Sequence record: OR844765
Length of the DNA: 64,000 nucleotides
Direction: 5' to 3' (one strand)
Source: Escherichia phage ECO111 5-P
The notes under the pieces were generated by a model. It was not told where the DNA came from. It saw only the letters and a program-made list of their open reading frames with translations, and did not search any database. This document shows, one piece after another, positions 13,013 through 13,649 of the stretch. Position numbers and translations under genes: made by a program. Within the stretch, counting starts at the first letter, position 1, and every line of letters begins with the position of its first letter.

Positions 13013-13324
13013 ATGAAAACTTATCAAGAGTTTATCGCTGAAGCTACTAAACCCGATAAAAATTTTGTTATTAACACTAACGGCCCGTTAGATGATGAAT
13101 ACGCTAATGCTATTATTAAGTCAATTTCTAATCAAGGCGTTGAAGTATCAAATTTCGAATATAAGAAAAATGATACTTATATGGTAATTAGTATCAAAAA
13201 AGGTTCAAAAGCCAAAATTAAATCTGCATTTGGTGTTATGCGAGCCGACCAAATCGATAACCACGATTTTTCACAAACTGGGGTCAAACGCCAGAATACT
13301 ATTTCATCTAAAGGCATAAAATAG
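13013..13324 (+). CDS. internal-protein-like head protein with N-terminal capsid targeting sequence
   Basis: Starts MKTYQEFIAEATKP (T4 IP-type CTS); ORF track start 12968 is a GTG inside the promoter, moved to ATG 13013; follows 57B as ipI does in T4. Confidence 0.7.
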   Translation: MKTYQEFIAEATKPDKNFVINTNGPLDDEYANAIIKSISNQGVEVSNFEYKKNDTYMVISIKKGSKAKIKSAFGVMRADQIDNHDFSQTGVKRQNTISSKGIK

Positions 13325-13353
13325 TTTACATCATGGTAGGACTATGTTATAGT
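13324..13353 (+). promoter_or_regulatory. early promoter (GTTTACA, TGtTATAGT) centred in palindrome TAGGACTA-N8-TAGTCCTA
   Basis: GTTTAC 13324-29, -10 TATAGT 13348-53; palindrome arms 13337-44 and 13352-59. Confidence 0.6.
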
Positions 13354-13385
13354 AGTCCTATCAAAACAACCAAATGGAACCTAAA

Positions 13386-13649
13386 ATGAAAACTTTCAAC
13401 GAATTCATCTCAGAATCGTCTGGTGTGAAAATTAACAAAGCGGTCAATCAGGTTATTGCTGATATTCTTAATTTGTATAACATTGACTTAACTCCGCATA
13501 TCACGCTTGGTAACAAACGAAACTTTTTCATATTTGACACATCCGAACTTGATGAAAATCAGTTCAATAACATTCAACGTTTTGCGAATGATAAAGGTCT
13601 TCGACACGAGCCTGGTGGCTATAAAAAATACGCAATATATTTGAAATAA
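13386..13649 (+). CDS. internal-protein-like protein (CTS MKTFNEFISE)
   Basis: ORF track 13374; start moved to MKTFNEFISE 32 nt after the promoter. Confidence 0.65.
   Translation: MKTFNEFISESSGVKINKAVNQVIADILNLYNIDLTPHITLGNKRNFFIFDTSELDENQFNNIQRFANDKGLRHEPGGYKKYAIYLK

Follow-up and report, generated by a model that had tools for sequence, protein, structure and literature searches.

Two small genes downstream of 57B in Escherichia phage ECO111 5-P probably belong to the Ip7 and Ip9 families and to a modularly shuffled ipI locus

In 1994, Repoila reportedly described polymorphic loci for phage internal proteins (IPs), in which the leader is conserved, as are blocks of about 70 bp that carry an early promoter. 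The Ip names originate from that work (Repoila et al., 1994, EMBO J 13:4181), to which two later papers attribute "at least 10" IPs (PMC12373910, PMC9026906). Experiments on the leader, or capsid-targeting sequence (CTS), of T4 have shown that residues 4 and 7 determine targeting and residues 8 and 10 determine processing, and that the CTS by itself is enough to package foreign proteins (PMC9026906). The T4 IPs are highly basic, with about 1000 copies in each head (PMC8442874), and Ip1, Ip2, and Ip3 inhibit one GmrSD type IV nuclease each, a different one in every case (PMC12373910). The other closely related system is the promoter/stem-loop (PeSL) cassette of T4-type phages, a sigma-70-like early promoter with a stem-loop that recurs between genes in hyperplastic regions, on either side of small non-essential ORFs in which otherwise near-identical phages differ (Arbiol 2010, PMC2839356; Comeau 2014, PMC4122927). 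The T4/PST PeSL consensus is TTTACW-N17-TAYWAT with an AGNA-loop-TCNT stem (PMC4122927), and the terminator and mini-circle experiments on PeSLs concern RB49 and phi1 only (PMC2839356).

We analyzed a stretch of 64,000 nucleotides from Escherichia phage ECO111 5-P (record OR844765), referred to here as the window. PHB12, SF, phiE142, and other Mosigvirus (RB69-like) phages match the region at 96 to 97% identity and share its gene order, gp1-57A-57B-IP-IP-tRNA.4; on this evidence, we assign the window to an RB69-like Mosigvirus. The genes and cassettes of the locus are as follows.

11510-12244, + strand: gene 1, dNMP kinase
12249-12479, + strand: 57A
12479-12934, + strand: 57B, that is, Acb1 (anti-CBASS 2H phosphodiesterase), the conserved left anchor (Pfam PF23474, E 6.5e-59; phrog_755)
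12949-12983, + strand: first PeSL, predicted to drive IP-A; -35 TTTACA at 12949-12954, 17-nt spacer, -10 TACTAT at 12972-12977
13013-13324, + strand: IP-A, 103 aa, ATG at 13013 to TAG ending at 13324; Ip7 family, allele Ip7a, orthologue of RB69ORF156c
13325-13369, + strand: second PeSL, predicted to drive IP-B; -35 TTTACA at 13325-13330, 17-nt spacer, extended -10 TGtTATAGT (hexamer at 13348-13353)
13386-13649, + strand: IP-B, 87 aa, ATG at 13386 to TAA ending at 13649; Ip9 family
13653-13697, + strand: third PeSL, upstream of tRNA.4; degenerate -35 TATACA at 13653-13658, 17-nt spacer, -10 TATAGT at 13676-13681, hairpin at 13665-13688
13719-13904, + strand: tRNA.4 homologue, a 61-aa predicted membrane protein, the conserved right anchor (phrog_1692, E 1.4e-32)

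The annotations of PhAPEC2 and RB69 tie the flanking genes to T4 57B, ipI, and tRNA.4, and the right-hand neighbor is named tRNA.4 in RB69, PhAPEC2, and RB32. Through these annotations, we identify the interval between 57B and tRNA.4 as the orthologue of the classical and polymorphic ipI locus of T4. A sequence-only reading of this DNA had placed two CTS-bearing ORFs, at 13013-13324 and 13386-13649, downstream of the Acb1-like 57B; both are there, each with a CTS. Its name for the site, a "second internal-protein locus," is a misnomer for the ipI locus. An IpI homologue is absent from the window, where tblastn with IpI matched the CTS alone. Neither ORF matched Pfam PF11634 (the IPI* GmrSD inhibitor), which RB69 IpI matches with an E value of 1.3e-50, and an Rfam scan of 12400-14000 returned no known RNA family. 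The SF counterparts of IP-A and IP-B are already labeled "internal head protein" in RefSeq. Taken as a whole, the two small ORFs after 57B are very probably Ip7- and Ip9-family genes at a T4-type ipI locus that is subject to modular shuffling.

IP-A matched phrog_2667 over residues 1 to 103 (E 3.9e-39), and tblastn with IP-A returned 282 phage records, among them T2 and RB32 'Ip7', to each of which it is 67% identical. Homologues carry the Ip7 name in T2, RB32, WG01, and others, and the RB32 record describes its Ip7 as 'similar to RB15 and K3 Ip7, RB69ORF156c'. Residues 1 to 10 of IP-A (MKTYQEFIAE) are identical to the T4 CTS at all 10 positions. Residues 8 to 10 read I-A-E and are followed by A, so that the (I/L)-x-E motif of the protease gp21 is present and a cut after E10 is predicted; the predicted mature protein has 93 aa, a pI of 9.5, and a mass of about 10.3 kDa. 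The AF2 model of IP-A has a pLDDT of 69 overall, with a beta-alpha-beta-beta-alpha core at 79 to 87 and a C-terminal basic tail of low confidence. Nowhere is the family better conserved than in this tail (invariant at 19 of 31 positions, versus 25 of 62 in the core), and its RQNTI motif is kept even in the JS98 paralogue at 48% identity. We regard the tail as a candidate target-binding element. In G2285 and vB_EQ1, a second allele, Ip7b, differs from Ip7a with a dS above 1.3 beside a dS of about 0.08 for the adjacent 57B, which points to allelic replacement by horizontal exchange.

IP-B matched phrog_7673 over residues 1 to 87 (E 7e-49) and is 71% identical to RB15 'Ip9' (UniProt Q38376); other homologues named Ip9 are found in RB33, IME08, and VR7, and tblastn with IP-B returned 199 phage records. 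Its leader, MKTFNEFISE, has F at position 4 and retains F7, I8, and E10 of the T4 CTS. Residues 8 to 10 read I-S-E and are followed by S, which again gives a gp21 motif and a predicted cut after E10, leaving a mature protein of 77 aa with a pI of 9.0 and a mass of about 8.9 kDa. In the AF2 model (pLDDT 88.8), IP-B forms a compact alpha-beta-beta-alpha-beta-beta domain, and the CTS is modeled ahead of it as a separate helix of lower confidence (residues 4 to 11). Searches of Pfam, NCBIfam, PADLOC, and PDB sequences returned nothing for IP-A or IP-B, and the two AF2 models show ferredoxin-like folds that are too generic to hint at a function. We also considered IP-B as a fragment of a 2H phosphoesterase, given its 'TPHITLG' beside 'TPHITLSY' in 57B, and rejected this: the match covers 9 residues only, the histidine is Y or R in homologues, the two H-x-T/S-x motifs are not present as a pair, and there is no Pfam match. 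A further in-frame ATG, lacking a Shine-Dalgarno sequence, lies upstream of IP-B at 13374; RefSeq annotates SF with the 264-nt form.

Both families are those known as Ip7 and Ip9 from T-even phages (names from RB15 and K3; annotated in RB32, MX01, IME08, and VR7). Between genera, identity ranges from 64 to 71% for Ip7 and from 67 to 75% for Ip9; within Mosigvirus, it is at least 93%. The T-even genes share with those of the window the same locus between 57B and tRNA.4, the same CTS, and the same kind of flanking direct repeats (in the RB32 record, 'flanked by 43 bp direct repeat'). They differ in three respects. The order is Ip7-Ip9 in the window and Ip9-Ip7 in RB32 and MX01; the Mosigvirus Ip7a lies far from the Tequatrovirus/Dhakavirus-type allele, with a dS above 1.3; and the repeat in the window is of a stem-loop subtype marked by GGACTATGTTATAGTAGTCC. 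With T4 IPI/IPI*, Ip2, and Ip3, the two proteins have in common a CTS-type leader, the gp21 motif, small size, an early-promoter module, and presumed injection with the DNA. The T4 cargos differ from IP-A and IP-B, with no similarity in sequence or fold, and the cut in IPI comes after residue 19, the Pfam domain beginning at residue 20, whereas in IP-A and IP-B it is predicted after residue 10.

The cassettes at the locus are of the same type as the published T4-type PeSLs: a sigma-70-like early promoter together with an intergenic stem-loop is found at three sites (12949-12983, 13325-13360, and 13653-13688), and the small non-essential ORFs beside them vary from one near-identical phage to another. 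The early promoter that the sequence-only reading had given to each ORF is borne out by promoter-like sites at 12949-12977 and 13325-13353. In the first PeSL, which is conserved in SF, RB69, p000v, JK45, and PhAPEC2, the hairpin arms are AGGATGAT (12957-12964) and ATCATCCT (12976-12983), and the RNA folds at -15.7 kcal/mol (z about -3.1). The second has the best promoter of the region in a consensus scan (10/12), arms TAGGACTA (13337-13344) and TAGTCCTA (13353-13360), and an RNA fold of -17.2 kcal/mol (z about -3.4). For the third, the fold is -12.7 kcal/mol (z -2.6); its degenerate -35 and 'AGCCTATAGG' spacer also follow Ip9 in SF, TH58, KAW3E185, and Av-05, and RB69 and p000v have GTTTACA at this position instead. 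Both hairpin/promoter types at the ipI locus fit the T4/PST consensus. What sets the window apart from the published PeSLs is a stem subtype specific to its phage group and a hairpin that overlaps the -10 element and has no U-tract; a consensus terminator scan did not call any of the three hairpins as an intrinsic terminator. Given this overlap, and with transcription starting about 7 nt beyond the -10, only RNA that reads through from the upstream gene would form the hairpin.

The 20-mer GGACTATGTTATAGTAGTCC occurs exactly at 13339 and 13667 and with one mismatch at 20072, 22013, and 33294. These copies always lie upstream of a small ORF on the + strand, and there are five in 64 kb versus 0 expected in shuffles. 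The palindromic cassette that had been seen ahead of the second ORF is confirmed; the IP-A promoter is palindromic too, and an exact copy of the cassette follows IP-B. IP-B lies between the two copies of a perfect direct repeat of 33 nt (13337-13369 and 13665-13697, spacing 328), and a 48-nt repeat of RBS and CTS is 73% identical between IP-A and IP-B.

To compare the locus among relatives, we read the interval from the 57B stop to the tRNA.4 start, which gave the following contents.

Window and SF: Ip7a, Ip9
G2285: Ip7b, Ip9
RB69: Ip7a, IpI
p000v: Ip7a
vB_EQ1: Ip7b
PhAPEC2: IpI
KAW3E185: IpI, Ip9
JK45: IpI, another CTS ORF
TH58: Ip9
MX01: Ip9, Ip7
RB32: Ip5, Ip9, Ip7

We count nine locus configurations among the relatives. 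Slot identity varies in both slots, either of which may hold IpI, and the order is reversible; the RB32 record itself says that Ip5 "replaces ipI." Whether relatives have one or two IP genes here, a check that had been proposed earlier, is answered by one in p000v, vB_EQ1, PhAPEC2, and TH58 (and in T4, according to the PhAPEC2 annotation), two in the window, SF, RB69, JK45, KAW3E185, and MX01, and three in RB32. The cassette repeats are where close phages differ by indels and replacements. In p000v, the single cassette has the spacer of the downstream copy of RB69. In TH58, the Ip9 RBS is joined to a hairpin of the first type inside a common AACAACC segment. Between the window and RB69, homology ends a few codons into the CTS and returns at the downstream stem-loop. 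The putative crossover points fall inside the repeated cassettes, as published for PeSLs (PMC2839356, PMC4122927), and the window and p000v together reproduce the PeSL case of RB49 ORF192 versus phi1.

These comparisons bear on the idea, put forward from the sequence, that the second gene is a cassette-borne insertion and the first a part of the core order. The former holds insofar as IP-B is a repeat-flanked module, absent from p000v and vB_EQ1 and with IpI in its place in RB69. IP-A, however, is not a core gene: it has a palindromic PeSL of its own, it gives way to IpI in JK45, PhAPEC2, and KAW3E185, and it is lost in TH58. Nor is it fixed, as the divergent Ip7 allele takes its place in G2285 and vB_EQ1. 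"Insertion" also presumes a direction, and the Ip7-Ip9 pair occurs in other genera as well (RB32, MX01), so the single-gene states may equally be deletions. Each IP gene is a self-contained module, consisting of a PeSL, an RBS, a CTS of about 10 codons, and a small cargo domain unrelated to that of the other. We propose that such modules are deleted, inserted, swapped, and reordered, within and between phages, when the repeats that they share (PeSL, RBS, and CTS) undergo homologous recombination.

The block of gene 1, 57A, and 57B is shared, at an identity of at least 90%, by about 153 records; among them, IpI adjoins 57B and adjoins tRNA.4 in about 110, and the Ip7a/Ip9 junction is found in 22. 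Ip7a lies within reach of tRNA.4 in 27 records, all counts being approximate because GenBank/RefSeq duplicates are included and nearby pieces were joined. The Ip7 plus Ip9 configuration of the window is a minority state (22 of about 153). One record marked UNVERIFIED, OLB35, contains a scrambled tRNA.4/Ip9/Ip7/Ip9 mosaic without a CTS.

That the locus is dispensable in relatives, as their single-gene and alternative states show, might mean that one or both ORFs are decaying remnants, carried along in a hyperplastic region with no present function; the CTS-less mosaic of OLB35 could be read in this way too. We consider this highly improbable for the window, where both frames are intact and come with a promoter, an RBS, and a CTS, where the IP-B model is confident, and where full-length homologues number in the hundreds over several genera. 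Selection argues the same way. The dN/dS is 0.06 to 0.20 for Ip7 and about 0.08 for Ip9 against RB32, with dS saturated in both cases, and 0 to 0.12 for 57B against its relatives. Both IP genes are under purifying selection and are hence real genes.

As the sequence-only reading had proposed, six ORFs in the window bear a CTS: starts of the form M-K-[TM]-[YF]-x-E-F-[IL]-x-E are found at 13013, 13386, 24741, 25501, 25825, and 26165, and the similarity among these ORFs is confined to the first 10 to 13 residues. IP-A and IP-B combine three marks of an IP gene, namely, a CTS, a gp21 motif, and a small non-essential gene among repeated early-promoter blocks. The CTS would direct both proteins into the prohead scaffolding core, where the prohead protease gp21 would cut them after I-x-E10, and the small basic mature proteins would stay in the head and be injected together with the DNA. 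Judging from the CTS, we think it quite probable that both are packaged, processed, and injected. A literature search found no virion proteomics naming Ip7 or Ip9 and no work on their function. There is no T4 late promoter beside IP-A or IP-B, the nearest TATAAATA being at 11887, inside gene 1 and about 1.1 kb upstream; supply at the prohead stage would therefore need read-through or persistence of protein made early.

The Ip9 cargo (approximately residues 14 to 87) also has homologues without a CTS outside T4-type phages. In Kagunavirus, a protein of 72 aa (58% identity) is encoded by the first gene of a small-ORF operon; in Seuratvirus KS_S4, the homologue has 74 aa (46% identity); and in the Ackermannviridae phage SKML-39, the C-terminal domain of the 660-aa gp077 is 33% identical to the cargo. 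When 1.84 billion representatives were searched exhaustively with a profile, only 38 Ip9-like clusters were found, mostly small proteins of 45 to 113 aa, whose N termini are in some cases CTS-like (MKSFKEF/YLTE) and in others MGGRGASS. A few are fused to unannotated regions, and these fusion partners have no Pfam or PHROG function. A 776-aa match, P0070, is apparently a LysM-repeat protein and was taken as spurious. When metagenomic Ip9-like proteins with other leaders were used in tblastn, P0058 led to known Ip9 genes only and P0083 to no isolate. This distribution shows the CTS and the Ip9 cargo to be separable modules.

The CTS-less homologues in Kagunavirus and Seuratvirus imply that the Ip9 domain can work when made inside the cell, with an activity independent of injection, and they keep alive the explanation that IP-B is mainly an early cytoplasmic protein of host takeover or anti-defense, whose CTS-like leader is incidental or serves a minor route. 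The leaderless relatives of 72 to 74 aa at 46 to 58% identity agree with this, as do the assorted N termini of the small phage proteins that were all the profile search found, and the early promoter of IP-B, which lacks its own late promoter, is the best in the region. Even so, the leader with its I/L-x-E site is kept in every T-even Ip9 homologue, though it lies outside the folded domain; the slot is otherwise held by the injected inhibitor IpI; and in T4 the CTS alone is enough for packaging. We consider a mainly cytoplasmic role unlikely and favor packaging of IP-B.

If injected, IP-A and IP-B would act ahead of any phage gene expression, and they would most plausibly be specific inhibitors of host defense against incoming DNA, as T4 Ip1 to Ip3 are. 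We make this proposal because the CTS is compatible with it, because the slot holds IpI in most relatives, and because Ip1 to Ip3 block GmrSDs. By this analogy, we lean toward both proteins being counter-defense factors. That their target is a GmrSD-type enzyme is possible but doubtful. Kagunavirus is not known to have modified DNA, and the presence of an Ip9 homologue there weakens the case for Ip9 as a specifically anti-type-IV-restriction protein. IP-A and IP-B could instead be packaged for a structural or counter-ion role, aiding DNA condensation, neutralization, or ejection, with no specific host target. Such a role would suit the basic predicted mature proteins (pI 9.5 and 9.0), the basic and abundant IPs of T4 (about 1000 copies per head), and two folds of which neither is diagnostic. 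Unrelated, interchangeable cargos (Ip7, Ip9, IpI, Ip5, and the JK45 ORF) are a better fit for arms-race specificity, however, and all three T4 IPs have specific GmrSD targets. The Ip9 domain is moreover retained in phages without a CTS, and both proteins consist of a compact fold whose surface carries conserved motifs, which is more than a low-complexity basic tail. We therefore regard a purely structural role as quite improbable and the counter-defense reading as the better account.

As a case of modular evolution in T4-type phages, the locus is already known, and its essentials have been described and annotated. The Ip9 cargo without a CTS in unrelated phages is modestly new. One tentative possibility, to which we give limited credence, is that the Ip9 domain, of about 70 aa, may be a small phage-wide effector that was made injectable in T-even phages by fusion to the CTS, which would be a portable tag drawing already existing cytoplasmic counter-defense proteins into the capsid; the target of Ip9 would then be a defense common to phages with modified and unmodified DNA and would not be GmrSD. 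These homologues also show that the "internal head protein" label is being spread to CTS-less siphovirus proteins, which cannot be targeted to the capsid in the manner of T4. Among ten or more IP families, targets are known for Ip1 to Ip3 only. A phage with Ip7 and Ip9 in place of the GmrSD inhibitor IpI offers a natural setting in which to look for the targets of these two proteins and for the effect of IP content on host range.

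The cargo domain of IP-B, the Ip9-family internal protein (IP) encoded at window 13386-13649 (+), is also found without any capsid-targeting sequence (CTS) as leader in Kagunavirus, Seuratvirus, and Ackermannviridae phages. Positions are those of the sequences L004, L005, and L006.

L004 2504-2722: Ip9 cargo homologue of Kagunavirus UTEC10, no CTS leader
L006 2492-2716: Ip9 cargo homologue of Seuratvirus KS_S4, no CTS leader
L005 776-2758: protein with the Ip9 cargo domain of Ackermannviridae SKML-39, no CTS leader

In the two siphovirus groups (Kagunavirus and Seuratvirus), the cargo is a stand-alone protein of 72 to 74 aa, and in SKML-39 it is the C-terminal domain of gp077, which is 660 aa long. 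The KS_S4 record labels its Ip9-like copy "internal head protein," a label that looks to have been transferred from the T4-type family. The N-terminus of SKML-39 gp077 (L005 776-835) begins MATPSFLNFLEES and loosely resembles a CTS, including the L-x-E cut motif; because of this sequence resemblance, gp077 could itself be head-packaged.

In one record, the Ip9 cassette stands at another site. Av-05 (NC_025830; L015 1201-1558) carries a stem-loop/Ip9/stem-loop cassette that is 98% identical to window 13339-13696. It does not adjoin 57B; instead, the gene that directly follows it is homologous to window gene 22056-22361 (compared region, 22010-23024), which puts the cassette at the position of the early promoter/stem-loop copy at window 22013. 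The Av-05 record is circular, 121 kb long, and classed as Vequintavirinae but contains Mosigvirus sequence; either the cassette was relocated or the assembly is at fault. In OLB35 (an UNVERIFIED record; L016 880-1191), the second IP gene position of the 57B locus is a scrambled mosaic that lacks a CTS and is annotated "ip7 protein." Its order is the tRNA.4 start, a middle fragment of Ip9, the middle of the diverged allele Ip7b, and the 3' end of Ip9; the mosaic may have been left behind by recombination or may be a sequencing artefact.

The cassette 5' of tRNA.4, a small membrane-protein gene (window 13719-13904), has a degenerate -35 (13653-13658; TATACA versus TTTACA), and therefore tRNA.4 expression may depend on read-through from the IP-B promoter. 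SF, TH58, KAW3E185, and Av-05 likewise have this variant after Ip9, so it seems to move together with the sequence on the 3' side of the Ip9 module. Across genera, tRNA.4 shows almost no synonymous divergence (dS of 0.07 against L011 2879-3064 of the Dhakavirus MX01), whereas dS of the neighbouring Ip7 exceeds 1.3, which suggests either recent exchange of the tRNA.4 segment or nucleotide-level constraint. Although predicted to be disordered (pLDDT of <60), the Ip7 C-terminal tail (window 13229-13321; IP-A residues 73 to 103) shows the highest conservation of any segment in the family (FGVxRxDQIDNHDFxQTGVKRQNTI..GIK).

Near the 57B locus, the only T4 late-promoter core found was TATAAATA at 11887-11894, within gene 1 and 5' of 57A. 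Any late transcription that runs across 57A-57B and the IP genes has this core as its sole candidate source. Two tRNA genes lie downstream of the locus.

15155-15229: tRNA-Met (CAT) gene
15258-15334: tRNA-Arg (TCT) gene

RB69 has the same pair, whereas in p000v a homing endonuclease comes after tRNA-Met instead.

The remaining four CTS ORFs form a second IP cluster at window 24741-26494.

24741-25022: CTS ORF
25501-25761: CTS ORF
25825-26139: CTS ORF
26165-26494: CTS ORF

Their cargo regions are unrelated to one another, to IP-A, and to IP-B. The GmrSD inhibitor IpI (PF11634), present at the 57B locus in ~110 of ~153 backbone-sharing records, has no homologue anywhere in the whole window, and this absence may bear on host range.
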